Source of the DNA: Candidatus Woesearchaeota archaeon
GTDB taxonomy: Archaea; Nanobdellota; Nanobdellia; Woesearchaeales; UBA11576
Direction: 5' to 3'
Length of the DNA stretch: 64,000 nucleotides
Assembly: GCA_043819495.1 (NCBI GenBank)
Contig: JBDRET010000030.1
Coordinates: 5,463-69,462, forward strand
How positions within the stretch are numbered: the stretch's first letter is position 1; each line of letters opens with the position of its first letter. Shown here piece by piece: positions 21,551-43,542 of the stretch. Under the pieces are notes generated by a model. The model ran no database searches and had not been told where the DNA came from. It saw only the letters and a list, made by a program, of their open reading frames with translations. The translations under genes were made by a program, and so were the position numbers.

Positions 21551-21555
21551 ATTAT

Positions 21556-23036: not shown

Positions 23037-26000
23037 ATGGTGAAACTGGAAAAGAGGTTGAATATTGTATTGTTCTGCTTAGCTATGCTGCTTTTCTCAT
23101 CTTCCGTCCACGCTGCAGGTCTTATCTTCGGCGGAGCGACAATACCATTGATTGATGGTGGATATACTATTCCTGAGAAGGCAGTACCGGGGGAAACACT
23201 ACAGCTGTTTATGCATATTGCTGATCCTGGCGGAGTTGATTCGGTGGTGGCGAACTTCACTCATGAGAAAGGTGGAGACATTGTCGCCCTTGAATTATAT
23301 AATGGCACATCCGATGATGGTTACTGGAAAGCAGAGTGGGTTGTGCATGACACTCTGGTGAAGGATTATTCTGTAGAAGTAATTGCAGACAATGGAGTGT
23401 TCCAATCATTTGAGACAGTCTGGTGGAGCGATCCCATATATCCTTTTAGGGCGCGTTATCCATCAGGATATACTTGTTCTTCCGGAACTTGGCGTCTTGG
23501 CATAAAGTTCTCAGTCACTGAGGCGGTGCAGGTAGAAAGTCTGTGCGGTTATTGGTCGAGCGGGGCGCATACAGTGTTCCTTCAGCAGGAAGGTAGCTAT
23601 GGTTCTAATCTTAGGAGTGCAAGCGTGACGAGCAGCGGAAGCTGGAGTTGTACTGCAATAACTCCAATAACTCTTAATCCTGGAATTAATTATTTTGTGG
23701 CCCAGAATGCCGCAGGGGGTTCATACTGTTACACCAACCATCCTGCGGGAAGCAAGTATGGTGTGAATTTTGCTCAAGGAGGGGTATACCAGTCAGGGGC
23801 AGGCACTTACTTCACTTCAGCGCCAACTCCTGATTCTGCTATGGCCTATGGTATGGTAGATATAGGTCTCACCTGCACCACTCCTTCTGCAGGAATGACT
23901 ATCAGCGCTGCAGGGATAACCCGTCTCTGCGGAGGAAATTACAATCTTAATGATGCTACTGGTGTGATCCGGATTGGCAATAATAATGTCAATATAATGT
24001 GTGGTGAGACGATCCTTACTGGTTCGGGCATAGTGAGTGGAAGGGCATTCTACAATCCAGGTTATGATGGGGTCACCATTGAGGGATGCACTACTTATGA
24101 ATATCTGACAGCATTCTATATGGGGCCCACAGTGACTGATGCAGTATTCAGGGACAATACGATATATAGGCCCAGTAATGGTTTCTACTCTACCAATGAC
24201 AATCACGCAAGGATAACTATTGAAAATAATGAGATATACACTGCCAATTACGGCTTCAGGGTGTACGTGGGTGGTGGTGACCTTGTGATACAGGACAATA
24301 GATTTTCCGCTACAGAATGCAATTACATCTACTACGGAGATAACCACAGGGTACTTAATAATAATTTCACGGATCTCAATGGCTCGTGCGGCGTACTATA
24401 CATGATTGGGTACAGTGGTACTAATTATAATACAGGTTCTGTGATAGAAAATAACAGGTTTTCAGGAGCCCCGGGCAATGTATTGTTTTACCTCTATTAT
24501 TACCTGGAGGATCTGGTGATATCTAATAATACGATTGATGTCTCGACCTCTTCTACTCTGTACATGTCGGGAAACTCTTATGCATATCCTAATAGGAATA
24601 TACTGGTAACCTATAACAATTTCATCGATGCAGGATATAGAGGGATAAATTTTGAAAACTATGTCAACTCGTCAACAATATCGTATAATAATATAAGCGG
24701 ACCTTTGTACTATGATGTCCGGATAGGTAGTACATCAGGAGGTAATGTGATATACGGTAACCGTTTCCTCAGCGCAGGCACCAACCTCGCAGAAGCGAGC
24801 AATTATAACAATCATTTCAATAGGACTGTCGGAGGGGTTGCGCAGGGCAATTACTGGGCTGATGTGATCCCGAGCAAGCTCAACATACAGGATGCCAACC
24901 TGGACCTATTCGGGGATTCAGGCAGTCAGTATCCATATAGGTACTCTAAAGGAGGGGATGTCAACAGTTACGTGATAGATTACGGTCCTATACTTGTTGA
25001 TTCAGATGGCGATGGCACGCCTGACAATGTTGATTGTGGGCCTAATGACCCTAACATTCGTGCACCAAGGGCTAACCTTACGATAACCAGCAACACGATA
25101 TTCTGTCCAGGGACGTATAGCCTGAATGATAGTAGTGGCGGGTCTGGGTTGATCAGATTCGGCGCGTCAGGGATAACTCTTACCTGCAATGGTACTGTGA
25201 TTATAGGGAATGGGTCTGGTTTGGGTATAAATGATTATGGCTATGATAACGTCATCATCCAGGGTTGTGATGTGCGGAACTATCAGTACGATCTGTTCTT
25301 TGGGAATGTGGTGACTGGTTCGACCGTCTTTAATAACACGTTAAGGGATGCCGTCTATGGCATTTATTTTGGGGCATTAGGAACTACCGGCAATATTGTA
25401 CGTAATAATACATTTACTGGTAACGATTATGGTGTGTACTTCGCATCCGGAGTCATAGGCAATGAGGTATATCATAATGAGTTCTTGAGCTCTAACACTG
25501 ATCATGCATACGCGGTCAGTTCAGGTAATGCATTCTATGAGGTCATCGGATTCAACCAGGGGAATTATTGGATAGACATCCCTCTCAGTAATCTCAACAT
25601 AACTGATTCTGACAGCAATGGTTGGGGCGACGGAGGTTCTGCTTATCCATACAGCGCAGCTAAGGGTGGTAATGTCGGTCCGAATGTTGCGGATTACGGT
25701 CCCATGATGCGTGATTATGATTCTGATGGCTCTCCGGATAGCGTGGACTGTGTCGATACTGATTCCAGCATATTGGCTCCTGCGGATGATGTAGTGATCA
25801 GCTATGATACTACTCTCTGCCCTGGCACATACTATGTGACTGATGTTGGTGCTGACGGAGTGTTGAAAGTTGTCAATGCAGATGTGCAGATACTCTGCAA
25901 TAACACGATATTGATAGGGGATTATTCAGGTATAGGTATTGCTTCTTCATCCCTTTCAGCAAGCATTGTAGGATGTGATATACGGAATTATTCAAAAGCG

Positions 26001-29000
26001 ATCAGTCAACAACAGGCGTATTGGAACATCACTTTTGACAATGGGATATCAGCTATTGACATAAGTCAGGAGGGGGCATTGTTATTGATTGACTCGTACT
26101 ACGGAGATGATATGAAGCTGAATGAGTTCGGGGAGACTATCTGGATACATGATAGTTACTTCTATACAGATATTGCAGCAGACTCTGCAGAAGATGTTTT
26201 TGTGCTGCAGGAAGGTGGAGAAGGTGATGCTGAGTTAAGGAAATTGGATGGCAGTACTGGTGATGAGATCTGGACTGTAGGACTATATTCATCCGGGACT
26301 GTTGTGGCACATGCCCTTGACGTCAACAGTGTGGGTGATGTATTTGTTGTAGGTATGGTCGGTTGGGATAATTGGACAATCTTCAAGATTGATGGGTCTA
26401 CTGGTGATGAGATATGGCAATCCGTGACTACTCTTAGTAATAGTGAATTGAACGCGGTTGCGGTCACTCTTGATGATGATGTTTTTGTAGGCGGGTTCCG
26501 CGTCGAAAACGATTGCTGGATTGCAAAATATGATGGAGACACAGGGGATGAGCTGTGGAACACGAGTGATATCGGTTGCGGAGGAGGATATGATCAGGTC
26601 ACTGATGTGGCAGTGGATACATCAAATGATCTGATTGCTGTGATTGTTGATTATAGTTCATATGGTTCATATTCTAACTGGCAGATCTGGAAAGGAGATT
26701 CTGATGGGAATGAGCAGTGGGTCGATCAGATCCCTTTTGACAATAGTATTGGTGATAATTATATCTGGGCTGTCGCGACAGACTCAGCAGATAACGTGAT
26801 TGTCGCAGGAGATAATAATGGCAATTGGACAGTAATTAAACTCAATCCTGCAGGGACTCCTCTGTGGAACAGGACTGGCGAGGGATATGGATCTGATGTG
26901 GCGGTCGATGCTGACGATAATATATTTGTGGTAGGAGAAGATTATGATTATTATGGTTTCGTTCTAGGATTCACTCCTGACGGAGACCTGCTCGGCGGCG
27001 GAAGCATTGATATCACCAGCTCTTCAATCAGCTCAGATATCGGGATGGAGCTTATAGGTGTTTCATCAGGCACGATATTCAACATGACGTTTAATGGAAA
27101 TTCAGTCTATGGATTGTACTTCAATGATACTGATGATTTCACTGTGATGAACTCTACATTTGCAAACTATGATTATGGCGTGTATCTTGATAGTGCTTCT
27201 ACGGGCAATACATTCTATCATAATAATTTCACAAATTCAGCGATAGCTCATGCATATGCTGAAGCGGCAGGCAACTATTTTAATTTCACGATAGGAGGAG
27301 TTCCAGTAGGTAATTTCTGGGATGATGTCGCCCCAAGTATGTTGGAGATATATGATACAAACATTGATGGTTTCGGAGATCTGGGGCCGGACTATCCCTA
27401 CAGCGCGGCAAATGGTGGGCAGGTAAGCAGCAATGTCGCGGATTATGGTCCTATGCTTACAGACTCTGACAGCGATACTGTTCCTGATTATCTTGACTGC
27501 GCGCCTTATGACTCGAGCATATTCCCTCCTTACGATGGACTTAAATTAACAAGCCCGGGAACGTACACTCTGTGTAATGGTACGTATTACTTGAGTGATG
27601 CAGGGAATGATGGTATCATTAGGGTAGTGTCTGATGCTGTGACCATAAAAGGTAATAACACGTTTATAGTCGGCACCAATTCAGGATACGCAATCAGGTC
27701 ATACGAAAAATATGCTGGCCTCACCATACAGGGATGCACGTTATCCAACTTCTCATATGGTATCTATCTGTATAATACATCTGCAGGAGCGTATTCAGTA
27801 TTCTGGGATGGCCTGACTATAAAGGATAACAACATATCTAACATGACTAGTGCTGGTATCTATGTGTCATATGGCATGAAAGATGCGCTGGTGTACAATA
27901 ATATTGTGGAGGAGACAGGGACATTTGGCATTAGACTAGTGAACATGGCAAATTACTTCTCTGATAATAATAATGTGACGGATAACGACGTGCGTACGGG
28001 ATCTGACTCAGGGATATATACTGATTGGGCAGGTGTATTGATAAAGGATAATGATGTGACTGGTGGAGGTTATGGCATTCAATGCAGGCATTGCATAAGG
28101 AGCAACATAAGCTACAATCGCGTAATCAATTCAGCACAGAAGGGCATCTTGATGTACTATGGGAATACGAGCGATCTGGATGTGACTCAGAGCGTAATCT
28201 CGTACAATAATGTATCTCATGGTGCGCATGGAGGTATAGGTATAAGGAACATACGTAACCTGACTGTTGCTTATAACTGGATATTGCACACAGATGGTAC
28301 GGGACAGCATGATGCAGGTATCTGGGACTATTCCGAATCAACTGATAGGAACAGGTACATAACCATACGGAATAATTACATCTTCAATTGTTCTAATCAT
28401 GCAATCCTTCATACCAACTTTGGGCATGGGTATATCACTGTCGCAAATAATACGATCGATGGGGGCTGGTCAGGATCCGCTCCACGTACTGCCAATGGGA
28501 TAATGTTCCAGGCGTCAGGCCTGAATTACAGCACATTTGAATGGAATAACATAACAAACATGAATGGTGTGGGGATATATCTTAACTATGATGCGAGTGG
28601 TAACATATTCAGGTACAATTATATCTATGTGAACAGGAGCTCTGCCACCTCAGTATATGTTTATAGTGATATAGACATAAAGAATAACACATTCTATAAT
28701 AATACGTTTAAGGGGGGTAGTGGTGGGGTGCAGTTCGGGACCAATTCCAACAATAATCTGGTATACTGGAATAATTTCTTGAACAATACCTGGCATGCGA
28801 GTTCTCCTGCCCTGACCAACCAGTTCAACACGACGGTTGGAGGAGTGCCGCAGGGAAATTTCTGGGATGACATAAACTCCAGCAGCCTGAAGATATTTGA
28901 CAGCAATCTTGACGGTTTCGGTGATTCTGGTGCAGAGTATCCGTACAACAGCACGAACAGAGGTGACGTGCAGAATAAAGTCAATGACTGGGGCCCGATC

Positions 29001-32000
29001 ATGATAGACTCTGATGTCGATGGAGATCCTGACTGGAGGGATTGTGCACCGTTTGATTCGAGCATTCTATCTCCTTATGATGATTTGAATATAACTCAAG
29101 ATACGACATTGTGTTCTGGAACATATTATGTCAACGACACTTCAGGAGATGGGCTGATAGTTTTTGCGAATGACGATTTGTCTTTGACTTGTAATGGTAC
29201 AGTCATGGTCGGATACGGAAACACTGCGATAAAGATTGCAGATCATGACGGGATAACTGTTTCAGATTGTACCATGGATTATTATGGGTCTTCTCTGGGC
29301 AAGGCAGCATTATATGTCCTGAACAGCAATGATGCAGTCATAGAGAATGTATCTTTCTCACATTCGAGAGGGTATAGTATGGCCTTTAATCACGTTTCTA
29401 ACTATGATAATAACATCAGTGTTGATGGTATGACCGTAATCAATGGGACGACTGCTGCACTTGCAGTATTTGAAGTAAGCAATTCATCATTCAAGAACAT
29501 GTATCTTAATGTTGACCGTGGAAGTGGTAGTGATGCGATTTATGATGACGTCACATATAATGTGAGCTTCGAGAACATCACTATTGATGGTAATATCGCG
29601 ACAGGATTATTTATCTTCTCCGAATCAAATCTGAGTACATATGATGACATAGATGTTGACATGAGTCAGGCAAGCCCTAGTAATGCTGGAACGTACATAG
29701 AAGGAAAAAACACAACAATAAGAAATTCAGTATTCAGGAACACTGCAGGTGGTTGGGGAATCTATTTTTCTGGCGGTGGCAGTTATGGTTTGATAGAGAA
29801 CGTAAATCTATTAAATAATGAATGGGGTATGCAGATAGATTCTGGAGATTATCATACAATTCGGAACAGTACATTTTTCAATAACACCCAGGGTGTACTG
29901 ATAGATTCTGGCGAGATAGGAAACATATTCTACTACAATAATTTCAGCAATTCAACAACATATCATGCTAGAGCAGATGGTTCAGGCAACCACTTCAACA
30001 CGACCAACGGCAGTGCCTGCGGTAATGAGTGTGCAAGAGGGAACTACTGGGATGATATCCTCAGTCTTGATATTATAGATTTTAATCGTGATGGTTATGG
30101 GGAGGCAGGTGCACACTATCCTTATAACTCTACAAATGGGGGGAAAGTCACAGGATCCGTCAATGATTTTGGACCTTTGACCACTAAAACTTGTTATGAT
30201 ACAGATGGTGATGGCGCGTATAATTCCAGCAGTGCTGCAGGGTGTCCTGGTTATAGGGATTGTGATGATACTGATGAGTACCTTGTTCCTCCGTATGATG
30301 GTCTGAATTTCACAAGCTCAGGAAGTTATACGTTGTGCAGCGGCACATATTATCTGAATGATACGGGGAATGATGGTCTGATGAAGATCGATTCTGATGA
30401 TGTCGAGATAACCTGTAATGGTACTGTGATCAGGAATGACATCGGTGCTACCGAGATAGGGACAGCATTCAACAATGCTGGCGGGGATGACGCCATTGTC
30501 AGAGGGTGTACTGTTGTGGATTATGATTTCGGGTATTATGCAGAAGCATCATCTAATCATTCGACCATCTTCAACAACTCTTTCCTGAGCTGTCAGAATG
30601 CAGGGGTTGAATCAATTTATTCTGGAAATGATGGCTGGAATGTATCTGATAACAGGTTCATGTCAGAGGATGAGAGTCCGGTAAATCAGTATGGTGTGGT
30701 GGTTAACTATGGTGATGGATGGGCAATCCAAAGGAATGTGTTTGATAATATGTATAATTCGATATCATTCAGGTACGGGGATGATGTGTTGATTGAGAAT
30801 AATCTGTTGAATGAGAGCAGACTAGGCGCGATCGTCATTACCGGAACCACTGGTGATTTTGTGTATGGTGCGATTATTGCAAACAATACCTTCAATAAGT
30901 CTATTCTGAGCGGAGGGACTGCCGAACTGTATATTGGTTCGTATTCTGAGGCAGGTCTTATAGCTGATAATACATTCTATGTTCTAGGAGGGTTTAGTAC
31001 TGCAGTGATACGTCTCGACGGGACAAGTGGAGGTGAAGTGACTGATTGGGTAATAGAGAACAATGATCTGCTTGACATAAGGAATTATGGGATATATCTG
31101 CAGGATTATACTATCGGGACTATCGTACGTGGTAATAACATTACTGGTGCTGACATGTATGGTGTGTATCTTGGAGCTACAGTGATTGATGATAATTTAT
31201 TCTATAACAATTCATTCTATAATTCAGGGACTGATCATGCTTATGACGCAAGCGGCGCCAACCATTTCAATACTACAATAGGAGGAGTCGCAGTCGGCAA
31301 CTTCTGGGATGATATAAACAATAATATAGAGATATTTGACAATAATCTTGATGGGTACGGTGATTCAGGTCCTGAGTATCCTTATAATTCCACGAACGGC
31401 GGCAATGTATACAAGGTTAATGATTACGGTCCTATACTCATAGATTCAGACATTGACGGCGATCCTGACTGGAGGGATTGCAATGATGCAGATGCAGGCG
31501 TCCTTGCCCCTAGAGACGGATTGAACATAACTTCAGACAAGATGCTCTGCAGCGGTACGTATTACATCAATGATTCTGGAGTACAGGGTGTGATCATATT
31601 CGGCTCAGCAGGCAGGGAGCTTACCTGCGATGCTACTGTGATGATAGGTAATGGAAGCGGTTATGCTGTCGCGGACAGTTATTCGACGACATCAGTCGAT
31701 GGATGTGACTTCCGCAATTACGGTTCTGCGGTCTTAATATCTGGTTCTGCTTCAGGTGTGGTCATAGCAAACAATACATTGAGAGACTCAGCAAGAGGTG
31801 TTGAACTGTCAGGAAGCCCCACAGGCAATATTATTCAGAACAACACAATCACAGCGGATTCATATGGTGTATATCTTGGTTCAGGTGTGTCTGGCAATTA
31901 TGTATACTATAATACATTCTCAAGCATGTCGCTGGCAAATGCATACGCAGCATCATCAGGCAATCATTTCAACACAACCAACGGCAGTGATTGCGGTCCT

Positions 32001-35000
32001 CAATGTGCAAGAGGTAACTTCTGGGATGACGTACTTAATCTACAGATATCTGACCTTGATGAGGATGGATATGGAGATGCAGGCACTGAATATCCATATA
32101 ATGCCACGAATGGTGCCAATGTCTCAGGATTTGTGACTGATTGGGGTCCTGCGACGACAAAAGCAGGAGGATATTGGGATAGCATAATATACCCTGAAGG
32201 TGTCTTTGAGCCTTACAATGCAGGATTGGTCAGCAAGAATCATCAGTTCACTCTGAATTTCACATTTGTGGATCTATCGGCTGCTGCAGGCAATACTCTT
32301 GAATGCGCAATCAACATGATGAATGGTTCTGTAAAGACAATCAATAAGATTACTTCAGGAGGAGTCAATTTCGACGATTCATTGACTTACACATTGACTG
32401 CTGCTGACGCAAATGCGATACAGAAAAAGACAGTTGGTGCAAATAAGCCTATCATCCCCTGGGAAGTCATAAACTGCAGCTTGAAATCAAGCGGCAATGT
32501 GTTGTACTGGAACGATTCATCTTACGGCAGCCCTCTTGAGAAGAAGATATACGTACACAATAACACCTGGACAGGGTTTGTAGCAGGCGGCGATGTATCT
32601 GCAGCATATCTCTGCTGGCTCTTCAGCAAGAACATATGGTTCAACAACACCAAGGCATGTGACTTTGATGGTGATTATCAGTATGCAATCTATCTATCTA
32701 CTGGAAATGCCATTGAAGGTAACTGTCATGATGGAATAAACAATGACAATTTCGGACCTACGGATTGTGACACAGGGATATGCAGAGGCATATTCTATTC
32801 ATGCGGTAACCCATCGAAAGGAAAGTCTTATGATGATTTACACCCGAATATTCCTGCAGTACTACCTTATCTGAATCCGTTCAATCCGGAAGTGCCGCCT
32901 TTCATGCCGTTCATATGGCTTGCAGCGGCGATCATGTTTGCGCTCCTTGCAGTGTTCGTCTCTAGATTCGCAGAACTCTCAGACTTGCGGTACGTATCGA
33001 CAGTCGTTCCGATCATACTGTTCATATGTTTCATCATAAATGCAGTCACTATCTTGACAGTCTCAGTTGCAGTATCTGCACCAAGCATTGAGGCAGCATA
33101 TAATGGAGCTCCGCCAGGAAGCTGCGTTGGGAACATATGTAGCGGGACAGTGAGCACGATAGGCGGAAACCCGATAACATATTATTATACTTTGCATAAT
33201 CGTCCAGGAAGCAAGTTCAAGATAAGATGGAATGATGATAATGTAAATGATCCACTATTGCGGTCTCTGATATACACTGCCAAGAACTTATCAAATACTA
33301 TCTCGAGCAACGGAACATACGATGACAGCGGAGGCAGGCCAGGGATATCAAGAGGGTCTGTCATGCCGCCGTTCTTTGATACTCCTGAGCATCCTAATGG
33401 GCTCTTCAGGAATTACATTGTCCAGGATTCTGATGGTCATGCAGGTGTCGTTGACGGAGTGATGTGGGCGATATTTAATTCTAGTGTGGACACTACAGAT
33501 TCTGTCTACTTCCAGCTTGCTGTCTCACATTATGGTGCGGCTGATGATATCAACCCGCAGACAGAACTCTATTTCGATTTAAGTGCACCGACCAATGATG
33601 ATGAGAGCTATGTGAATAGCACTATTGGCCTTGCGAACCCATGCGCAGACAGGGTTGACAATGATCTTGATTTCAACATGGACTGTCTTGATGACCAGTG
33701 TAATGGTGAGATAGGTAATGTGGGCTTAGGTGCGATATGCCAATATTCTGGTGAGACTGTCTGCAATGATCGGTTCGATAATGATTTTGACAGGGACTCT
33801 GGTGTTTTATATGATACGGATGTCAATACAGGAATGGACTGTAGGGATTCAGGATGTGATGGTCTGCAAGGACACCCATCTGACGGGTCATTGGTCTGTA
33901 GGTATCTGGATGAGCACGCAGGATATCCATATAGCTGTCGTGATGGTTTCAATAATGATGCTGATTACGGCAATAATTCAGGGACTGCCAGCCTGGTCAA
34001 TGGTGTTGCAGCATATGATACTGCGAGCTACACTTATTTCGACTGCTATGATACCCAGTGTTGGGGTCAGGGAGGGACCAGCACGGACCTGATCAACAAC
34101 CCTTGTCCTGCATTCGAGAATAATGATGGTGCCTGGTGTCTTGATGGGTTAGATAATGATCTTGATGATGGGAATAATACGAGAGATCTCAGCAATTCTA
34201 CAGGAGTTGACTGTAGAGATTATGATTGTGGTTTCATGCCTTACGCAGGAGGTCCTTACCAGAATGATACGATGAACTTCACTTGTGCTATAAATGAGTA
34301 CAGCGGAACAGAGGAAGGGACTGCAAGTTATGATCCGAACGCATCTCTCTGCTTTGATAATCTTGATAATGATCTTGATAATCCTGATGGGTTCTACAAT
34401 AACCCTGGAGAGCTTATCGATTGCGGGGATCCTGATTGTACAGGGATAACCGATCCTGATGATGCTTCCAGGACCTGTTATGTGCAGGAGTTCAACATAA
34501 CACTCGGTATCCAGGCATGCAATGATGCTTTTGATAATGATGGTGATGATTGGATGGGCTGGCCTGGTGGGACGGACTGTAGAGATTCCAACTGCCATCA
34601 GCAGTTCGGTAATTGCGGCCCTTGCGCATCAGTTGAGAATATCACTTATGACTCTTGCGCAGATGGTATGGATAATGATATTGATACTCCTACAGGAGCA
34701 GATGTGGCTGATTGTAAAGATTATTCTGATTGTGTGGGTGAGATAGGCAATCTGACTGGTGGGCAAGTATGCTCTGCAGCAAGTGGTGAAACTGGAGCAT
34801 TATGTGGTGATGGTTTTGATAATGATGCTGACAATCTTGTAGATTGTAAGGATACGAACTGCTATGGTAGCATAGGACCTGATGGTCAGGTCTGTGCAGC
34901 ATCTGAGGCGGGAAGATGCAATGACAATCTTGATAATGATGCTGATGGACAGATAGATTGCTTCGATACGGACTGTTATGGTGATTCAGCATGTGCGTTA

Positions 35001-38000
35001 TCTATAATTAAAGCACCAGTTTACAATCAAGTTCCTGATTATGATAGTCTGCCTCCTGCAGGTTCATCTATAGGTGCCACATCGACAATAAAAGGATTCC
35101 ATCTCGAACACTTCTATATTGGAAATAATCATACAATGTCATTCATCGGGACTGATTCATATCAGACAGTATCGATCTTCATAGGGTCTGACACAGACTA
35201 TTATGCGTATGACTTCGATCAATGCACTATAATAGGTCCGAATACCACAACGTTCGGCAATCTATCATCTGGTGATTATGGAGTCATAGCTAAGAACACC
35301 ACTTATGATATAGGAAGATTCAATGTCACTATGACTTGCAATCCTGGAGCGATACCTCTTGCAGCTGACACATTCAATGTTCTGGTCTCGGCGAGGAAAT
35401 CGAGCGGCGCAGAAGATAAAGGTAATGAGGATTGGACAACACAGCTTCATGAGAATACAGAACCTGATGTAAGTTACATTGCTATAGAGCCTCTGAACGC
35501 AACGGGTTACGTGAATGTTGAACGAGGAAGACCTATAGGTTTCGTCGCTAACGCATCAGACCCTGGAGCAGGAGTTTATACTTCAGGAATATACAGATGT
35601 ATGTTCAATATAGGTGGTGCGGGCTACATATCTGACGATTGGGATAATAATTACCGGTGCAGGTATTCATATTCTACAACAAGTGACACGACCTCAAGCA
35701 TAACCGTCTCAGCATACGCGATAGATGGCTCTGATAATGATGACTCTTCAAGTCCATACACGTCACCATCTTTCAACATAAATGTCCAGCCGATACTTGA
35801 CAGAGAAATGGTCATAAACAAGACCAAGCCGTTCTTCAATTCAGGAGAGCAGGTAAGGATGAATGTCAGTTTCGTGACTGCTGACAATGGCAATTTCCCT
35901 GCGGCGACATGCTCAGTCACAGTACTCAACTCTGCAGGAGGAGTTGCAGCGGCAAGCACTATTGCAGCGACAAAACCTACTTCAAATACTGTAGAATGTG
36001 ATGGTGCAATCACTGTACCTACAGGAGATGATATGTACAGGGTATACGTGACAGTCACCGACGAAGATGGAGATTCTGTTTCATCAAATCAGAAAGTCTT
36101 ATACGTCTGCGACAGCTTATCAAGCTCTGGCTCTGGCTGGACCTGCGCAAAAGCAGACTTTGATCAGGATGGTGCTACAGAAGGCATATTCTCTGACCTT
36201 TACGTGATACCTGTCGCGTGTGATAACTGCCTCAATCTCTACAACCCTGAACAGGTCGACAGGGATGGTGATGGTTGGGGAGATATCTGCGAGCAGAGTC
36301 CTGAGGGAAGCATGATCATATATGGTCCTAATGGCACTACGTTTACAGGGACAAGGAATGTATTCATCAACCTGACATTCAGGGATACATTATATCTTGA
36401 CAATTGCAGATATGCTAATGATGATCCTGCTAACCTGAACGATTCTATGTGGGAGAACTGCACAATGGTCCATGCATGGATCCTGAGCGAAGGCGAAGGG
36501 AACAAGACAGTCTATGCTGAGATACGCAACCTGTTCGGCGGGACTATTGTGGTCAATGATTCCATAGTGTATCGTTTCATCCAGGACTATGTCCCTCCGA
36601 GCGCACCAGTGGTATATGATGGAGATACTGGCTATGATATCGACTGGTGGAATGATAACACCACCCTGAGTGCTTACTGGTGGAACGCGACAAGTGCGAT
36701 ATCTGCGCTTTATTACAAGTACAGGATATTTGAGGATGGTCTGTGCTATCTGGGAGATTGCGATTGGACTTATGTAGATAGAGATGTATCCGTAACTGTG
36801 GAAGGTCTCTCGCTCAGCGAAGGTGCAAACTATTCATTCGAGGTGATGTCTTACACAAGCTCAGGATTCAATGCATCCACGACATCCAATGGTACAATAA
36901 TAGATGTGACTGACCCATCAGAGGTCATCATCAACAGCACGACGCATCCAAATCAGAATTTCACTTATGGTAATGACACTGTATTCTTCAACTTCACTGC
37001 GACAGATCCTATGAGTAATGGTGTAGCATCAGGTATTGCAGGTTATTCATTCCTCTTGGACAGATATCCAGGGACTGCTCCTGATGATGTCATTGAACCA
37101 AGACCATGGGTGAATCTGAAAGCTGCAGTGAATGATGGCACAGCACAGCTATTGAGAGCAGATAATGAGACATCTTCCCCTAATACTTATGCAGTATTCA
37201 GTCAGATAAAGGAGAATTTTACAGAGAATGAATCGCTTCTGGTCAAGGTAGCTCTTGCAGAGATAGGGTCTGATTATGATGACCTGATGGGCATCAAGGT
37301 ATATCTCGTGAAGACAGGTAATGGTGCTGCCATAAGCACCTTTGACAGTGAGATTGGTGCAATAAGCAACATAATCAATGTGAGCAGGGACGTAACATAT
37401 TCAGATTTCATGCGCTCTGCAGTCAGATACGAATTTGAGCTTACAGTCAACGAGACGGTCTCTGACAGCTCGAGTGACGTATACATAGTGGTCGCAGGTG
37501 TCGCTTCTGACGATGACAACAGGAATAATCTCTCTATCGCAGCATCAGTATCACAGATAGATGATTCGACAAGGAATTTCATCTGTGTATCTGGAGGTTC
37601 CTGCAGTGAGAACACTACAGGTATCGATTACGCAATAGAGGTCAGCAGGCAGGATGCGGTGGATATCTGGGAGATGAGATATTTCAACATAGGTGAAGGG
37701 ACGTTCTATTTCCATGCTAAGGCAAAGGATGTCGCAGGAAATTGGGGTGACCCGGCACATTATAAGATAATCATAGATACCGAGGGAGTATATGTATCGA
37801 TAGTATCGCCATTCACAGGTCAGATATTCACTGTCGATGAGATAGAGGTCAAGGTTGAAGTGAGCGATCAGGCATATGTGAATGTGACTGCAATCTATCC
37901 TGACGGCAGCAATGATACTGTTGCTACTGTGTTAGTGAATGATACAAATACGTTCAATGTTACGCTGGAACCAGGCATGAATGAGATATACGCGACAGCA

Positions 38001-38498
38001 AGGCAGTATGGATCAGACATACTCACGCGATCATCAAGCGTCTTTGTCAGGAGAGGGACAGAGATGCCCGTAGGTAATGGCACATTGAGGATAAGATATG
38101 CAGGACTGGACTGTTCACAATATGCCCATATGTGTACTCTTGGTGAAGCAGGGCATATCATAGGCATAGCGTCAGAGAATGATACTCTTTTGATGGGAAG
38201 TGATGAGATGACTACAAGCACAGGGCATTACGCCCTCAAGATATTTGCTGCAGACCCTAGGATGGATTTTGGATCGATCGAGGATGATCTTGCTGATGAT
38301 GACTTCCTTGACAGGGAGAATCCTCTGTTCAGTTATAAGCAGGGCATACCATATTACATAGTGCGGACTGAGATGCGTCCTCCTTATGTCTATCTTAGCG
38401 GCGACCGTAAGGTCGGGGAGGGATATTACATTCTTGTATTCAGGAATGTAGGTTATACTGCTGATGGCAGGGCTAACATAAGCGTGAGTATAAGTTAA
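23037..38498 (+). CDS. giant (5153 aa) secreted/membrane-tethered protein: 7 NosD-type right-handed beta-helix modules, beta-propeller-like insert, internal TM hairpin, Cys/Asp-rich repeats, conserved ~730-aa C-terminal module
   Basis: Single uninterrupted ORF with the signal peptide IVLFCLAMLLFSSSVHAAG. PbH1-type repeats (N.I..N.....GI.L). Seven GN[YF]W.D..D.N.DG.GD.G..YPY caps. See the findings for sub-features. Confidence 0.9.
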   Translation: MVKLEKRLNIVLFCLAMLLFSSSVHAAGLIFGGATIPLIDGGYTIPEKAVPGETLQLFMHIADPGGVDSVVANFTHEKGGDIVALELYNGTSDDGYWKAEWVVHDTLVKDYSVEVIADNGVFQSFETVWWSDPIYPFRARYPSGYTCSSGTWRLGIKFSVTEAVQVESLCGYWSSGAHTVFLQQEGSYGSNLRSASVTSSGSWSCTAITPITLNPGINYFVAQNAAGGSYCYTNHPAGSKYGVNFAQGGVYQSGAGTYFTSAPTPDSAMAYGMVDIGLTCTTPSAGMTISAAGITRLCGGNYNLNDATGVIRIGNNNVNIMCGETILTGSGIVSGRAFYNPGYDGVTIEGCTTYEYLTAFYMGPTVTDAVFRDNTIYRPSNGFYSTNDNHARITIENNEIYTANYGFRVYVGGGDLVIQDNRFSATECNYIYYGDNHRVLNNNFTDLNGSCGVLYMIGYSGTNYNTGSVIENNRFSGAPGNVLFYLYYYLEDLVISNNTIDVSTSSTLYMSGNSYAYPNRNILVTYNNFIDAGYRGINFENYVNSSTISYNNISGPLYYDVRIGSTSGGNVIYGNRFLSAGTNLAEASNYNNHFNRTVGGVAQGNYWADVIPSKLNIQDANLDLFGDSGSQYPYRYSKGGDVNSYVIDYGPILVDSDGDGTPDNVDCGPNDPNIRAPRANLTITSNTIFCPGTYSLNDSSGGSGLIRFGASGITLTCNGTVIIGNGSGLGINDYGYDNVIIQGCDVRNYQYDLFFGNVVTGSTVFNNTLRDAVYGIYFGALGTTGNIVRNNTFTGNDYGVYFASGVIGNEVYHNEFLSSNTDHAYAVSSGNAFYEVIGFNQGNYWIDIPLSNLNITDSDSNGWGDGGSAYPYSAAKGGNVGPNVADYGPMMRDYDSDGSPDSVDCVDTDSSILAPADDVVISYDTTLCPGTYYVTDVGADGVLKVVNADVQILCNNTILIGDYSGIGIASSSLSASIVGCDIRNYSKAISQQQAYWNITFDNGISAIDISQEGALLLIDSYYGDDMKLNEFGETIWIHDSYFYTDIAADSAEDVFVLQEGGEGDAELRKLDGSTGDEIWTVGLYSSGTVVAHALDVNSVGDVFVVGMVGWDNWTIFKIDGSTGDEIWQSVTTLSNSELNAVAVTLDDDVFVGGFRVENDCWIAKYDGDTGDELWNTSDIGCGGGYDQVTDVAVDTSNDLIAVIVDYSSYGSYSNWQIWKGDSDGNEQWVDQIPFDNSIGDNYIWAVATDSADNVIVAGDNNGNWTVIKLNPAGTPLWNRTGEGYGSDVAVDADDNIFVVGEDYDYYGFVLGFTPDGDLLGGGSIDITSSSISSDIGMELIGVSSGTIFNMTFNGNSVYGLYFNDTDDFTVMNSTFANYDYGVYLDSASTGNTFYHNNFTNSAIAHAYAEAAGNYFNFTIGGVPVGNFWDDVAPSMLEIYDTNIDGFGDLGPDYPYSAANGGQVSSNVADYGPMLTDSDSDTVPDYLDCAPYDSSIFPPYDGLKLTSPGTYTLCNGTYYLSDAGNDGIIRVVSDAVTIKGNNTFIVGTNSGYAIRSYEKYAGLTIQGCTLSNFSYGIYLYNTSAGAYSVFWDGLTIKDNNISNMTSAGIYVSYGMKDALVYNNIVEETGTFGIRLVNMANYFSDNNNVTDNDVRTGSDSGIYTDWAGVLIKDNDVTGGGYGIQCRHCIRSNISYNRVINSAQKGILMYYGNTSDLDVTQSVISYNNVSHGAHGGIGIRNIRNLTVAYNWILHTDGTGQHDAGIWDYSESTDRNRYITIRNNYIFNCSNHAILHTNFGHGYITVANNTIDGGWSGSAPRTANGIMFQASGLNYSTFEWNNITNMNGVGIYLNYDASGNIFRYNYIYVNRSSATSVYVYSDIDIKNNTFYNNTFKGGSGGVQFGTNSNNNLVYWNNFLNNTWHASSPALTNQFNTTVGGVPQGNFWDDINSSSLKIFDSNLDGFGDSGAEYPYNSTNRGDVQNKVNDWGPIMIDSDVDGDPDWRDCAPFDSSILSPYDDLNITQDTTLCSGTYYVNDTSGDGLIVFANDDLSLTCNGTVMVGYGNTAIKIADHDGITVSDCTMDYYGSSLGKAALYVLNSNDAVIENVSFSHSRGYSMAFNHVSNYDNNISVDGMTVINGTTAALAVFEVSNSSFKNMYLNVDRGSGSDAIYDDVTYNVSFENITIDGNIATGLFIFSESNLSTYDDIDVDMSQASPSNAGTYIEGKNTTIRNSVFRNTAGGWGIYFSGGGSYGLIENVNLLNNEWGMQIDSGDYHTIRNSTFFNNTQGVLIDSGEIGNIFYYNNFSNSTTYHARADGSGNHFNTTNGSACGNECARGNYWDDILSLDIIDFNRDGYGEAGAHYPYNSTNGGKVTGSVNDFGPLTTKTCYDTDGDGAYNSSSAAGCPGYRDCDDTDEYLVPPYDGLNFTSSGSYTLCSGTYYLNDTGNDGLMKIDSDDVEITCNGTVIRNDIGATEIGTAFNNAGGDDAIVRGCTVVDYDFGYYAEASSNHSTIFNNSFLSCQNAGVESIYSGNDGWNVSDNRFMSEDESPVNQYGVVVNYGDGWAIQRNVFDNMYNSISFRYGDDVLIENNLLNESRLGAIVITGTTGDFVYGAIIANNTFNKSILSGGTAELYIGSYSEAGLIADNTFYVLGGFSTAVIRLDGTSGGEVTDWVIENNDLLDIRNYGIYLQDYTIGTIVRGNNITGADMYGVYLGATVIDDNLFYNNSFYNSGTDHAYDASGANHFNTTIGGVAVGNFWDDINNNIEIFDNNLDGYGDSGPEYPYNSTNGGNVYKVNDYGPILIDSDIDGDPDWRDCNDADAGVLAPRDGLNITSDKMLCSGTYYINDSGVQGVIIFGSAGRELTCDATVMIGNGSGYAVADSYSTTSVDGCDFRNYGSAVLISGSASGVVIANNTLRDSARGVELSGSPTGNIIQNNTITADSYGVYLGSGVSGNYVYYNTFSSMSLANAYAASSGNHFNTTNGSDCGPQCARGNFWDDVLNLQISDLDEDGYGDAGTEYPYNATNGANVSGFVTDWGPATTKAGGYWDSIIYPEGVFEPYNAGLVSKNHQFTLNFTFVDLSAAAGNTLECAINMMNGSVKTINKITSGGVNFDDSLTYTLTAADANAIQKKTVGANKPIIPWEVINCSLKSSGNVLYWNDSSYGSPLEKKIYVHNNTWTGFVAGGDVSAAYLCWLFSKNIWFNNTKACDFDGDYQYAIYLSTGNAIEGNCHDGINNDNFGPTDCDTGICRGIFYSCGNPSKGKSYDDLHPNIPAVLPYLNPFNPEVPPFMPFIWLAAAIMFALLAVFVSRFAELSDLRYVSTVVPIILFICFIINAVTILTVSVAVSAPSIEAAYNGAPPGSCVGNICSGTVSTIGGNPITYYYTLHNRPGSKFKIRWNDDNVNDPLLRSLIYTAKNLSNTISSNGTYDDSGGRPGISRGSVMPPFFDTPEHPNGLFRNYIVQDSDGHAGVVDGVMWAIFNSSVDTTDSVYFQLAVSHYGAADDINPQTELYFDLSAPTNDDESYVNSTIGLANPCADRVDNDLDFNMDCLDDQCNGEIGNVGLGAICQYSGETVCNDRFDNDFDRDSGVLYDTDVNTGMDCRDSGCDGLQGHPSDGSLVCRYLDEHAGYPYSCRDGFNNDADYGNNSGTASLVNGVAAYDTASYTYFDCYDTQCWGQGGTSTDLINNPCPAFENNDGAWCLDGLDNDLDDGNNTRDLSNSTGVDCRDYDCGFMPYAGGPYQNDTMNFTCAINEYSGTEEGTASYDPNASLCFDNLDNDLDNPDGFYNNPGELIDCGDPDCTGITDPDDASRTCYVQEFNITLGIQACNDAFDNDGDDWMGWPGGTDCRDSNCHQQFGNCGPCASVENITYDSCADGMDNDIDTPTGADVADCKDYSDCVGEIGNLTGGQVCSAASGETGALCGDGFDNDADNLVDCKDTNCYGSIGPDGQVCAASEAGRCNDNLDNDADGQIDCFDTDCYGDSACALSIIKAPVYNQVPDYDSLPPAGSSIGATSTIKGFHLEHFYIGNNHTMSFIGTDSYQTVSIFIGSDTDYYAYDFDQCTIIGPNTTTFGNLSSGDYGVIAKNTTYDIGRFNVTMTCNPGAIPLAADTFNVLVSARKSSGAEDKGNEDWTTQLHENTEPDVSYIAIEPLNATGYVNVERGRPIGFVANASDPGAGVYTSGIYRCMFNIGGAGYISDDWDNNYRCRYSYSTTSDTTSSITVSAYAIDGSDNDDSSSPYTSPSFNINVQPILDREMVINKTKPFFNSGEQVRMNVSFVTADNGNFPAATCSVTVLNSAGGVAAASTIAATKPTSNTVECDGAITVPTGDDMYRVYVTVTDEDGDSVSSNQKVLYVCDSLSSSGSGWTCAKADFDQDGATEGIFSDLYVIPVACDNCLNLYNPEQVDRDGDGWGDICEQSPEGSMIIYGPNGTTFTGTRNVFINLTFRDTLYLDNCRYANDDPANLNDSMWENCTMVHAWILSEGEGNKTVYAEIRNLFGGTIVVNDSIVYRFIQDYVPPSAPVVYDGDTGYDIDWWNDNTTLSAYWWNATSAISALYYKYRIFEDGLCYLGDCDWTYVDRDVSVTVEGLSLSEGANYSFEVMSYTSSGFNASTTSNGTIIDVTDPSEVIINSTTHPNQNFTYGNDTVFFNFTATDPMSNGVASGIAGYSFLLDRYPGTAPDDVIEPRPWVNLKAAVNDGTAQLLRADNETSSPNTYAVFSQIKENFTENESLLVKVALAEIGSDYDDLMGIKVYLVKTGNGAAISTFDSEIGAISNIINVSRDVTYSDFMRSAVRYEFELTVNETVSDSSSDVYIVVAGVASDDDNRNNLSIAASVSQIDDSTRNFICVSGGSCSENTTGIDYAIEVSRQDAVDIWEMRYFNIGEGTFYFHAKAKDVAGNWGDPAHYKIIIDTEGVYVSIVSPFTGQIFTVDEIEVKVEVSDQAYVNVTAIYPDGSNDTVATVLVNDTNTFNVTLEPGMNEIYATARQYGSDILTRSSSVFVRRGTEMPVGNGTLRIRYAGLDCSQYAHMCTLGEAGHIIGIASENDTLLMGSDEMTTSTGHYALKIFAADPRMDFGSIEDDLADDDFLDRENPLFSYKQGIPYYIVRTEMRPPYVYLSGDRKVGEGYYILVFRNVGYTADGRANISVSIS
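32910..33080 (+). other. two predicted TM helices in the middle of the 5153-aa ORF
   Basis: FIWLAAAIMFALLAVFVSRF (nt 32910-32969) and YVSTVVPIILFICFIINAVTILTVSVAVSA (nt 32991-33080), separated by a 7-aa charged loop. Confidence 0.6.
33642..34994 (+). repeat. nine Cys/Asp-rich repeats C-x-D-x-[FL]-D-N-D-x-D...D-C-x-D-x-x-C (protein-level)
   Basis: Examples are CNDNLDNDADGQIDCFDTDCYG, CGDGFDNDADNLVDCKDTNCYG and CADRVDNDLDFNMDCLDDQCNG. They resemble MopE-type putative metal/Ca-binding motifs. Confidence 0.7.
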
Positions 38499-38534
38499 AG
38501 AAGGTGTTATGAAGTGGAAAAAGAAACGAGCGGC

Positions 38535-43532: not shown

Positions 43533-43542
43533 GGTGGCGAAG

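Follow-up and report, generated by a model that had tools for sequence, protein, structure and literature searches.

A 15.5-kb open reading frame (ORF) at positions 23037..38498 (+ strand) of the DNA analyzed here (64,000 nucleotides; hereafter, the window) raises the questions of whether a single gene of a DPANN-type archaeon encodes a protein of 5,153 aa, how such a giant is held at the cell, and what it does there. The frame starts with ATG and stays unbroken over 5,153 codons, its sole stop codon being the terminal one, as described in a first-pass annotation of the locus. Because about 5% of random codons are stop codons, a frame of this length could not have arisen by chance. The encoded protein has a mass of 556 kDa, a pI of 4.05, 147 N-x-S/T sequons, and 113 Cys residues. 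It is also repetitive, and its source is probably a metagenome assembly. These two circumstances speak for an artifact, either an assembly chimera of repeated modules, which the first-pass annotation had named among the findings that would refute its reading, or a sequencing error that fused two genes. The DNA repeats within the ORF have diverged too far for an assembler to mistake one for another (60 to 84% identity, at most 207 nt), and GC content and skew are even along its length. Two independent assemblies encode colinear giants with matching junctions and flanking genes. One of them (P0016, locus L002; 6,626 aa) is colinear with aa 2921-5152 of the window giant at 52% identity, including the transmembrane (TM) hairpin described below. 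The other, from a different sample (P0017, locus L081; 3,990 aa), has the central cassette, the hairpin, and the C-terminal module (C-module) as in the window giant. In all, the hairpin junction is in frame in three assemblies besides that of the window, two of which also keep the C-module junction and the flanking genes. Given the short, diverged repeats and the colinear giants in two independent assemblies, the concern about a chimera is largely answered; an artifact is close to refuted, and we leave it only a very slight chance. The ORF represents a single, real gene from an archaeon of the DPANN type.

The earlier description of a single-ORF archaeal surface giant with a composite architecture was also borne out, by a signal peptide, by extracellular-type domains, and by archaeal genes in the window (those for prepilin peptidase [Arc_PepC_II], Pilin_N proteins, and RqcH). 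Its domain order proved essentially right when examined with Pfam, NCBIfam, hydropathy, and repeat inspection. The signal peptide, the sequons, the Cys residues, the acidic pI, and the extracellular type of all identified domains place the giant at the cell surface. A small genome for the source organism is plausible by extrapolation from relatives, since DPANN carriers of the cassette include one 647,887-bp record titled "chromosome".

All features located below lie on the + strand. The N-terminal arm begins with a Sec-type signal peptide (aa 1-26, 23037..23114), MVKLEKRLNIVLFCLAMLLFSSSVHA followed by AG, with a V-H-A site before the A and a hydropathy peak at aa 10-28. The N-domain that follows (aa 27-285, 23115..23891; previously estimated at ~270 aa) contains a DUF4082-like part at aa ~150-260, for which the match to Pfam PF13313 was near threshold (E=6.8e-6, 26.5 bits; cut-off, 28.4). 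Seven NosD-type right-handed beta-helix modules come next (23892..32171), with boundaries at aa 286-667, 668-905, 906-1488, 1489-2003, 2004-2409, 2410-2815, and 2816-3045. The count of seven, already given in the first-pass annotation, is supported by Pfam matches well above the cut-offs, to NosD (PF05048; E=2e-63, 214 bits against 23.6; nine stretches of the giant) and to Beta_helix (PF13229; E=3e-60, 203 bits against 25.9; 10 stretches), and by a module-terminal motif, GN[YF]W...YPY...D[YWF]GP, found seven times (aa 604, 842, 1425, 1940, 2335, 2754, and 2993). The modules are pairwise 25 to 48% identical and are joined by D-x-D-x-DG...DC linkers.

Although all seven modules strongly match the models of NosD/CASH-domain proteins (PF05048 and PF13229), the likeness is one of fold class and not of function. 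NosD itself is an accessory protein of ~400 aa in nitrous oxide reductase maturation. NosD proper (TIGR04247) was rejected as an identity for the giant, with a score of 25.2 bits against a curated cut-off of 300 and no nos genes within the window. NosD-type beta-helices are functionally diverse, a point that we counted against our preferred explanation of the giant.

Module 3 carries an insert (aa ~1030-1335, 26124..27041) with five clear tandem ~48-aa "DG.TGDEIW" repeats and space for about six blades. The tandem repeats stood where a beta-propeller-like insert had been proposed; for the propeller fold itself, the signals were weak but consistent. The insert scored below the cut-off against Beta-prop_EMC1_N (E=6e-4, 19.9 bits; cut-off, 34). 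Homologous inserts are present in P0016, P0015, and P0023, and those of P0023 reached 29.7 bits against WD40 (cut-off, 27) and 25.7 bits against DUF5122 (cut-off, 27). The insert may thus be a beta-propeller.

Residues 3047-4420 form a conserved cassette that is found in many DPANN archaea and, as two genes, in CPR bacteria. Its wide conservation, and the membership of its Cys/Asp units in a curated repeat family (NCBIfam NF033662), had escaped the first-pass annotation. The first part (aa 3047-3256, 32175..32804) consists of a domain that we call D240 and one Cys/Asp unit. This part is kept in 37 copies at 29 loci (alignment A4). D240 is of unrecognized fold and measures ~185 aa (~210 aa with the unit); the first-pass annotation had put the domain before the first Cys/Asp unit at ~240 aa. 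No Pfam family was matched by this part. Against solved structures, only the Cys/Asp unit of this part gave a match, to teneurin-4 (7plp; E=8e-4). The second part opens with another domain of ~185 aa, D180 (aa 3351-3535, 33087..33641; alignment A1). Neither D240 nor D180 showed a recognizable fold or family. In CPR bacteria, D180 opens a separate gene, directly behind a signal peptide.

D180 is followed by nine Cys/Asp repeats, acidic double-disulfide units (aa 3536-3990, 33642..35006) that start at aa 3536, 3576, 3634, 3701, 3772, 3828, 3874, 3923, and 3961. This arrangement, including the single unit after D240, agrees with what had been read by eye. The repeats, with the core C-x-D-x-x-D-N-D-x-D...DC-x-D-x-x-C, matched NF033662 above its curated cut-off (60.5 bits against 41, E=9e-17). 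The core of the unit also aligns to teneurin-4 in 7plp (CGDSKDNDGDGLVDCMDPDC), with which it shares C-x-D-x-x-D-N-D-x-D-x-x-x-DC-x-D-x-x-C (E=8e-4). Three Ca2+ ions are bound in the teneurin C-rich domain, with TSP3-like and LA-module-like coordination (PDB 7PLP; PMC9058538). In teneurin, the domain occurs once and contains six Cys residues, whereas the giant has 10 units with four Cys residues each and variable loops. By analogy, we infer that the Cys/Asp units bind calcium.

The cassette ends with an Ig-like (BIg) region (aa 3991-4394, 35007..36218) and a single thrombospondin type-3-like repeat (aa 4395-4420, 36219..36296; CDNCLNLYNPEQVDRDGDGWGDICE). The Ig-like domains noticed earlier were corroborated by matches of profile A7 to SiiE BIg50-52 (2yn3; E=1.7e-4) and to a bacterial Ig domain (9kvu; E=0.0025). 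For the TSP3-like unit of 26 aa, the pattern CxxCxxxxNPxQxDxDxDGxGDxC is visible, and P0002 and P0003 keep the unit; the scores were below the cut-offs of both Pfam TSP_3 (PF02412; 17.2 bits, E=0.004; cut-off, 25 bits) and NCBIfam throspo3_MtsC (E=9e-5).

We defined the cassette family as D240 plus unit, then D180, the Cys/Asp array, BIg, and a DxDxDG end, colinear over the whole ~1,280 aa, and the giant is colinear with it throughout (alignment A1). Among genomes that each represent a single species, 265 relatives were confirmed by tblastn, the best loci covering query residues 1-1373 at 25 to 54% identity. Close relatives are nearly all from DPANN archaea (Woesearchaeota, single-cell genomes of Nanoarchaeota, Pacearchaeota, and Aenigmatarchaeota), and none of those retrieved carried a Nanohaloarchaeota label. 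In most DPANN homologs, the two halves of the cassette are joined directly, without a TM helix. In CPR bacteria, they are encoded by two adjacent genes, split exactly at the position of the hairpin in the giant, and the second gene begins with a signal peptide.

In the giant, the halves flank a 94-aa insertion (32805..33086; alignment A1 and hydropathy) with the pre-TM motif YLNPFNPEVPPFMPFIW. It contains the two TM helices expected after the first Cys/Asp unit, TM1 (aa ~3290-3310, nt 32904-32966) and TM2 (aa ~3320-3347, nt 32994-33077), with hydropathy scores of 2.5 and 2.7; the loop SRFAELSDLRY lies between them, and TM2 is followed by AVSA and then PS. That this pair is a lineage-specific insertion at the point of the bacterial gene split was not noticed earlier. 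The insertion is missing from P0001, P0004, and most other loci (alignment A1) and is homologous in five proteins: the window giant, P0016, P0017, and the proteins of L003 and L019. All five keep the motifs Y..HP..NPxNPxxPxFxPxxW, LRY, and P..LF.CFI. None of the four intact hairpin proteins (window, P0016, P0017, and L003; L019 is cut at its end) has a C-terminal TM helix, whereas many hairpin-less cassette proteins have one, followed by a Lys/Arg tail. Since the insertion is conserved and its intact carriers lack a C-terminal TM helix, the hairpin is probably the membrane anchor of the giant, with both arms outside the cell, a topology based on Kyte-Doolittle hydropathy and conservation. The signal peptide would begin the export of the N-terminal arm (3,260 residues), TM1 would stop transfer, and TM2 would restart it, so that a short loop with Arg would remain in the cytoplasm. 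The giant would then be held in the membrane by its middle, and the hairpin would stand in for the C-terminal anchor of its hairpin-less relatives. The inter-helix loop is net positive in four of the five hairpin proteins and net neutral in the window giant (two Arg, one Glu, and one Asp); we counted this weak positive-inside signal against the proposed topology, as we did the need for an arm of 3,260 residues to get through an S-layer, should the cell have one.

Cleavage into two chains is a live alternative, because a small-residue A-x-A-like site, AVSA before PS, follows TM2 and because the second CPR gene starts there. Under this alternative, the hairpin would be a fossil gene boundary that is still functional, and one gene would yield two proteins. 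TM1, with its V-P-x-x-x-P motif and the Arg after it, would anchor the beta-helix arm at its C terminus or serve as its sorting signal, and TM2 would be an internal signal peptide cleaved after AVSA. Of the two mature products, the N-protein would be held in the membrane (or attached by a lipid), and the C-protein would be released but kept at the cell by the terminal module. The exact position of the CPR gene split, with its signal peptide, favors such processing, and the start of P0003 (MGAVVLAWLAWCRGASA followed by TIAPASPDCAGNICSG) aligns with AVSA followed by PSIEAAYNGAPPGSCVGNICSG in the window. Three of the five hairpin proteins have small residues after TM2, and the sequences before TM1 (VPPFMP, VPKFVP, and VPGFMP) agree with the V-P-x-x-x-P motif found in substrates of archaeosortase B (ArtB), which is described as VPXXXP-CTERM specific (PMC9723798). 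However, TM2 has ~26 hydrophobic residues, which exceeds a typical signal-peptide core and suits a true membrane span, and with the threshold relaxed to E<=10, no TM1 segment of the five proteins was matched by an NCBIfam sorting-signal model. There is no archaeosortase gene within the 64-kb window, and the VPxxxP motif is absent from the C-terminal anchors of other cassette proteins. Moreover, because most DPANN homologs fuse the halves without a TM helix, the halves need not be separate. We consider processing into two proteins unlikely, although slightly less so than the other alternatives raised here. As for archaeosortase B substrates as a class (PMC9723798), the giant shares with them V-P-x-x-x-P right before a TM helix and an Arg after it. 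Their tripartite signal lies at the extreme C terminus, whereas that of the giant is internal (aa ~3284-3311 of 5,153, with 1,840 residues after it); with no NCBIfam sorting-domain match at E<=10, the giant was not assigned to that class.

The C-module (aa 4421-5153, 36297..38495; 733 aa) comprises roughly six to seven beta-sandwich (Ig/FN3/MG-like) domains. Domain-wise structure prediction, which the first-pass annotation had proposed, was carried out for this module: an AF2 model from a 19-sequence alignment was all beta (pLDDT, 80.3), its Foldseek matches were solely strings of FN3/MG/Ig domains, and a weak FN3 sequence match was also obtained. A conserved segment near its end, FLDRxNPxFxY, was modeled with low confidence. 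Membership in the family was judged by a full-length match (~740 positions) ending at the last residue, as found for aa 4415-5153 of the giant. In all 22 representative proteins read (858 to 6,626 aa), the module lies at the extreme C terminus, 1 to 4 residues from the end, and none of the 22 has a C-terminal TM helix. The module had been said to exist also as two free genes, which holds for one of them. The gene at 38514..40826 (true start probably the ATG at 38535) encodes a signal peptide and the module alone, 45% identical to aa 4415-5153 of the giant, and its orthologs follow the giant in L002 (57%) and L081 (56%). The gene at 47657..50350, whose product is identical to P0007, encodes an additional Cys-containing N-terminal domain of ~160 aa ahead of the module, which is 46% identical to that of the giant over aa 170-905.

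We propose that the terminal module associates with its free paralog or with the cell envelope. An alternative, which strikes us as rather doubtful, is that the module is a subunit of an S-layer or envelope lattice, with the free 770-aa protein as the main lattice protein; the C terminus would plug the giant and other carriers into the lattice, and the hairpin would be secondary. In its favor, the module is always C terminal on otherwise unrelated passengers that end without a TM helix, and in three genomes a free version with only a signal peptide adjoins the giant. The model shows roughly six to seven beta-sandwich domains in a row, and S-layer proteins proposed for archaea, including DPANN members, have also been described as chains of Ig-like folds (bioRxiv 10.1101/2023.10.27.564410). 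The low confidence of the conserved FLDRxNPxFxY segment is as expected of a partner-dependent element. Yet no solved archaeal S-layer protein was among the top 50 Foldseek matches, three paralogous copies in a single window would not be expected of a main lattice protein, and the subdomains are generic repeats that occur in thousands of proteins.

The genomic context provided further clues. The gene just upstream of the giant (21939..23027), ending 9 nt before its ATG, encodes a 362-aa product with an archaeal ATPase_2-like domain and a winged-helix HTH (weak Pfam matches to ATPase_2, HTH_5, and MarR). A counterpart of 360 aa, 56% identical to this product, is encoded directly before the P0017 giant in L081. 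Conservation of the neighborhood extends to this regulator-like gene in L081 and, on the downstream side, to the free-module gene in L081 and L002. Other neighbors encode YadA_head-repeat proteins, archaeal pilins, an ATPase, platform proteins, a prepilin peptidase, and a CBM96/disaggregatase-repeat protein that is conserved in L081; the nearest ATPase family gene noted, for a T2SSE pilus ATPase, lies 15 kb downstream of the giant. This one-directional block of secreted adhesin-like proteins and type IV pilus machinery suggests a role in attachment. Type IV pilus genes adjoin the cassette at 3 of ~40 DPANN loci examined, and at four CPR loci the cassette genes lie immediately upstream of pilMBCD. 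The pilus linkage is thus tight in CPR bacteria and rare in DPANN archaea, which we counted against our preferred explanation.

On balance, we favor, with some reserve, the explanation that the giant is an acidic, Ca2+-stiffened surface adhesin of a DPANN-type archaeon, probably heavily N-glycosylated. The beta-helix and propeller arm would bind, and possibly cut, glycans on the surface of a host or substrate; the other arm, with its Cys/Asp units and BIg domains, would be a Ca2+-rigidified stalk; and the giant, encoded near adhesin-like proteins and pilus machinery, would have a role in attachment. If instead the beta-helix arm were mainly enzymatic, its modules acting as polysaccharide lyases or hydrolases on the host wall or on environmental glycans, the giant would be a tethered degradative machine and not an adhesin. 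The sevenfold repetition of the pectin-lyase fold (NosD/Beta_helix) and the nearby, conserved CBM96/disaggregatase-repeat gene would fit such a role, and degradation of host-wall glycans has been proposed for the pectin-lyase-like surface proteins of Nanobdella (bioRxiv 10.1101/2023.10.27.564410). Nevertheless, Pfam and NCBIfam gave only generic NosD/Beta_helix matches in this arm and no glycoside hydrolase, polysaccharide lyase, or peptidase; catalytic residues were not assignable, and many beta-helix surface proteins merely bind ligands. We regard a mainly enzymatic arm as improbable, more so than the lattice.

Giant surface proteins are a known feature of DPANN archaea (PMC10266531), which the first-pass annotation had not taken into account, and the size of the giant is therefore unremarkable in itself. 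A part in host contact has been proposed for giant and pectin-lyase-like surface proteins of DPANN archaea (PMC10266531; bioRxiv 10.1101/2023.10.27.564410). The "SPEARE" giants of Nanohaloarchaeota (SVXNc_0300, 9,409 aa; BNXNv_0298, 8,880 aa), which are proposed to bind the host cell, are described as having a VirB4/TraG-like ATPase domain and, next to them, a VirB4-family secretion ATPase, and they have been put forward as components of a type IV secretion system (PMC10266531). They share with our giant the DPANN origin, a single many-kilobase gene, an N-terminal Sec signal peptide, membrane anchoring, and an acidic ectodomain (pI ~4) of very large size that contains Ig-like or fibronectin-like repeats. 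Unlike them, the giant has NosD beta-helices, the Cys/Asp cassette, and, probably, a central hairpin as its anchor, and Pfam and NCBIfam detected no ATPase domain in it; by description, it is set apart from the SPEARE type. For the pectin-lyase-like/Ig-fold surface proteins of Nanobdella aerobiophila (908 to 1,320 aa, one beta-helix), a role where symbiont and host meet has been proposed (bioRxiv 10.1101/2023.10.27.564410). Shared features are the DPANN origin, extracellular location, parallel beta-helix and Ig-like folds, and dozens of N-glycosylation sequons; compared by description, the giant differs in its seven beta-helix modules and in its cassette, hairpin, and terminal module.

The giant Ca2+-dependent BIg adhesins of bacteria, such as Salmonella SiiE, whose BIg domains the Ig-like region matches by profile (2yn3; E=1.7e-4), follow the same logic as the window giant, in which a very long acidic rod, stiffened by Ca2+, carries a binding region outward. 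Adhesins of the SiiE type leave the cell by type I secretion and stay in the Gram-negative outer membrane, whereas the window giant would be exported by Sec in an archaeon and, as we propose, retained by its membrane hairpin. The giant is probably a new variant among the known giant DPANN surface proteins, its unusual feature being the conserved mid-protein helix pair as an anchor.

A large part of microbial diversity belongs to the DPANN archaea and CPR bacteria, most of which seem to be attached to other cells. To our knowledge, the molecules of this contact are almost unknown, and we know of no description of a built-in internal anchor or processing site in giant prokaryotic adhesins. A broader scenario, which we put forward as speculative, is that the cassette is the core of a host-attachment apparatus common to DPANN and CPR, the two radiations of ultra-small episymbionts; it would have passed from one domain to the other and would act in concert with type IV pili. 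In the archaeal sublineage of the giant, its halves would be joined via a conserved internal unit of sorting signal and signal peptide, so that one 15.5-kb gene would yield a two-armed protein anchored by the hairpin or two chains processed at the membrane. The locus offers a concrete, conserved, and testable candidate for a contact molecule, whose cassette occurs in hundreds of genomes of both radiations, and annotators gain names for several hitherto unlabeled domains. The hairpin poses a question of biogenesis, namely, how ectodomains of 3,260 and 1,800 residues are exported on either side of one helical hairpin. The C-module is a candidate envelope-docking device and could explain how many different large passengers are displayed on DPANN cells.

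The ORF at 23037..38498 (+) of the window reads without interruption, as the first-pass annotation had claimed, from an ATG through 5,153 codons to a single terminal stop. Its product (556 kDa, pI 4.05) has a high content of G, D, N, S, and T, with 113 Cys residues and 147 N-x-S/T sequons. The ORF begins 9 nt past the end of a gene encoding a 362-aa ATPase/wHTH-like protein, its stop lies 15 nt before the following ORF, and it is the first gene of a one-directional block that extends to approximately nt 61,000. The annotation had regarded the repeats in this ORF as an assembly risk, a concern that did not hold. Direct DNA repeats within the ORF are no longer than 207 nt and only 60 to 84% identical, so that an assembler would neither collapse nor mis-join them. 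No significant tandem arrays were found in the DNA of the ORF, and GC content and skew are uniform across it. The same architecture also recurs in independent assemblies. On an NCBI MAG contig of 149.8 kb (L002), an orthologue of 6,626 aa (P0016) is colinear with aa 2921-5152 of the window giant (52% identity) and is followed by a free copy of the C-terminal module (765 aa). A contig from a separate sequencing run (L081) encodes a protein of 3,990 aa (P0017) with the same central cassette, transmembrane (TM) hairpin, and C-terminal module. P0017 is preceded by a 360-aa gene with 56% identity to the 362-aa gene upstream of the window giant and is followed by a free-module gene of 838 aa. On these grounds, we rejected an assembly chimera as the origin of the giant.

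The previously proposed domain order proved essentially correct on the basis of Pfam and NCBIfam comparisons and a reading of motifs and hydropathy. A signal peptide (aa 1-26; hydropathy) and an N-domain (aa 27-285) with a near-threshold match to DUF4082 are followed by seven NosD/Beta_helix modules (Pfam; E=2e-63 and 3e-60). These modules are 25 to 48% identical to one another, each closes with the motif GN[YF]W...YPY...D[YWF]GP, and they are joined by D-x-D-x-DG...DC linkers. A NosD role in N2O reductase maturation was rejected for the giant by NCBIfam comparison. The insert in module 3 (~300 aa) contains five clear repeats of ~48 aa, with space for about six blades. It scores weakly as a propeller against Pfam in the giant, and of the relatives with homologous inserts, P0023 matches WD40 and DUF5122 propeller models. 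Next come a ~210-aa segment comprising a domain without a recognized fold (D240) and one Cys/Asp unit, two strongly hydrophobic helices (TM1 and TM2; Kyte-Doolittle values of 2.5 and 2.7), a ~185-aa domain (D180) that likewise has no recognized fold, nine Cys/Asp units, an Ig-like region with profile matches to SiiE BIg domains, and one TSP3-like repeat (Pfam and NCBIfam). The protein ends with the C-terminal module of 733 aa.

The region from D240 to the TSP3-like repeat (aa 3047-4420), referred to here as the cassette, aligns end to end with proteins of other genomes. A scan of one genome per species identified 265 relatives, one of them encoded on a 647,887-bp record that bears the title "chromosome." The full cassette occurs in Woesearchaeota, Nanoarchaeota single-cell genomes, Pacearchaeota, Aenigmatarchaeota, and Undinarchaeota, as well as in many MAGs labeled "uncultured Methanosarcinales," labels that we judged untrustworthy. 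It is also present in CPR/Patescibacteria MAGs; the one CPR contig checked (L005) is truly bacterial, encoding LepA, RecJ, acetate kinase, and a bacterial-type prepilin peptidase. The Cys/Asp array without the rest of the cassette is widespread in Myxococcota and other bacteria. Whole cassettes (~1,300 aa) are also found in tandem. Two copies align within P0001, the protein of L011, and the same number occurs in other DPANN proteins (L004, L006, and L019). Up to four are found at L038, and such copies lie within one or two giant ORFs.

No Pfam model matched the Cys/Asp units, which match the NCBIfam "acidic double-disulfide repeat" (NF033662) at 60.5 bits, above the curated cutoff of 41. The sole solved structure resembling them is the C-rich domain of teneurin-4 (7PLP; E=0.026 with a single sequence and 8e-4 with a profile); single-sequence PDB searches returned no other match, and a PDB search with a D240 profile revealed no fold. 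The teneurin-4 domain holds three Ca2+ ions by acidic residues, in a geometry resembling TSP3 and LDL-receptor-A repeats, and stabilizes the ectodomain (PMC9058538). The Cys/Asp units, the inter-module linkers, and the TSP3-like repeat of the giant share a D-x-D-x-DG logic. From this sequence pattern and the likeness to teneurin, calcium-dependent stiffening of the giant can reasonably be inferred.

TM1 and TM2 form a hairpin within a 94-aa insertion (aa 3257-3350) that is wholly absent from both cassette copies of P0001 and from P0004. At the same site, P0002 carries an unrelated, non-hydrophobic insertion, and P0003 begins there with a signal peptide. Across loci, the two halves of the cassette are joined in three ways. 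Most DPANN copies are direct fusions, many of which end in a TM helix with a Lys/Arg-rich tail behind it. In six bacterial-labeled loci, the halves are encoded by two adjacent genes, the second with its own signal peptide; four of these six loci share pil synteny. The hairpin variant is rare, being found in five proteins (the window giant, P0016, P0017, and those of L019 and of L003, a Nanoarchaeota single-cell genome), and a scan of JGI metagenomes with the hairpin motif revealed no further members. The five hairpins are homologous: they have in common a motif before TM1 (Y..HP...NPxNPxxPxFxPxxW), a short loop that ends with LRY (in two of the proteins, with RKY or VR), and a TM2 motif (P..LF.CFI). 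In a neighbor-joining tree of D240, four hairpin copies formed two neighboring pairs and no single resolved clade, a result that neither supports nor refutes a single origin of the hairpin.

All four hairpin proteins with an intact C terminus (that of L019 is cut at its end) lack a C-terminal TM helix. Because the hairpin is conserved and its intact carriers have no such helix, we take it to be the membrane anchor of the giant, with a topology predicted from hydropathy and conservation. The signal peptide would export the N-terminal arm, TM1 would halt transfer, and TM2 would restart it, with both arms ending outside the cell. Alternatively, TM2 could be cleaved as an internal signal peptide between AVSA and PS, and TM1 could be an archaeosortase B-type sorting signal. 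TM1 is preceded by VPPFMP (32886..32903; aa 3284-3289), which fits the V-P-x-x-x-P pattern of such signals (PMC9723798) and lies internally in the giant; the pattern occurs ahead of TM1 in three of the five hairpin proteins. However, no NCBIfam sorting-signal HMM matches this segment, the 64-kb window contains no archaeosortase gene, and other anchors in the cassette family do not have the motif. The sorting-signal idea was not supported when tested with NCBIfam.

The C-terminal module is 45 to 46% identical to the ORF at 38514..40826 and to the C-terminal 740 aa of the ORF at 47657..50350. The first-pass annotation had described these as two free genes, which is true of the former, where the module stands free behind a signal peptide, but not of the latter, which has an extra N-terminal domain. 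When the three window copies of the module were compared exhaustively by HMMER with 1.84 billion cluster representatives, 4,749 proteins were retrieved, most of which match single sub-domains only; of the top 31 representatives, at least 24 contain essentially the whole module (~740 positions). In all 22 proteins read (858 to 6,626 aa), the module ends at the last few residues, and none of these carriers has a C-terminal TM helix. Their N-terminal passengers are diverse, including beta-helices, propellers, Cys-rich regions, and Laminin_G_3, a ConA-like lectin/glucanase domain.

AF2 models of the module reached a pLDDT of 37 with a 3-sequence alignment and 80.3 with a 19-sequence alignment, the latter giving a model made entirely of beta structure, with roughly six to seven sandwich domains in a chain. 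Foldseek matched only strings of FN3/Ig/macroglobulin domains with low TM-scores (e.g., complement C3, alpha-2-macroglobulin, cytokine receptors, and titin) and no specific functional homologue, and a profile search gave weak FN3 matches; the module therefore looks structural. One conserved segment, FLDRxNPxFxY (module residues 674-717; giant aa ~5088-5131; window 38298..38429), has invariant F, L, D, P, F, Y, and R residues and very low AF2 confidence, and it may be a partner-binding or oligomerization element. We speculate that the module serves in docking or co-assembly, possibly as part of an S-layer-like lattice, because its position is strictly terminal, its carriers have no TM anchor at the C terminus, and free copies are encoded alongside.

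The giant is flanked by pilus-like gene sets on both sides. On its 5' side is a set of archaeal type IV pilus-like genes (4270..7760), made up of one for an archaeal prepilin peptidase and three to four of the Pilin_N family, followed by two further large surface proteins of the CBM96/disaggregatase type (9475..13059 [-] and 15250..21261 [-]). On its 3' side, the free copy of the module is followed by three secreted archaeal proteins (40869..41561, 41571..43532, and 43534..47595), the second module paralogue, and a set (50361..59661) of four small pilin-like genes, a T2SSE ATPase (713 aa, with a long N-terminal extension), and two T2SSF platform proteins (one of 785 aa). Beyond the window, split cassette genes lie immediately upstream of pilM-pilB-pilC-pilD in four CPR loci (L005 [9368..22788], L009, L012, and L013), and a pilus-type ATPase is encoded within 10 kb of the cassette in two other DPANN loci (L017 and L035). 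The association of cassette and pilus genes thus spans both domains.

Several neighbors have features of their own. The 1,194-aa surface protein has a signal peptide, repeats of the CBM96/disaggregatase type, and a C-terminal group of about six TM helices. Both minus-strand surface proteins align to separate regions of one 2,606-aa L081 protein (55% and 44% identity), whose divergent gene immediately precedes the regulator-like gene and the giant. The 653-aa and 1,353-aa secreted proteins contain YadA_head repeats, which form the head in trimeric autotransporter adhesins of bacteria. A C-terminal domain of ~160 aa, ending in ...GNWW.F..TTGGVG.TG.C.....IACC[KM], is common to the 230-aa and 653-aa proteins and also occurs in two L002 genes (54 to 63% identity). 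A 264-aa ORF (59844..60638) covers no more than the last 40% of archaeal RqcH, aligning to model positions 381-644 of 645; the N-terminal part was not noticed among the window ORFs examined, and the gene may be truncated or split. Searches of the 64-kb window for tRNAs and Rfam families gave no hits.

In the D240 tree, a rough neighbor-joining reconstruction of copies from L002 to L038, the six split copies from bacteria group together in a single clade surrounded by archaeal copies. This nesting suggests that the cassette moved between domains in a single transfer.

Surface proteins of giant size are already well known from DPANN archaea. Those of nanohaloarchaea reach 9,409 aa and have been proposed to bind hosts and to be part of a secretion apparatus with a VirB4-like ATPase (PMC10266531). 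The window giant is alike in general kind but lacks the defining ATPase. Nanobdella has surface proteins with pectin-lyase-like and Ig folds and dozens of sequons (bioRxiv 10.1101/2023.10.27.564410), compared with which the window giant is far larger and more composite. It is set apart by the conserved hairpin in mid-protein, by a cassette that CPR bacteria also possess, and by the family-wide terminal module.
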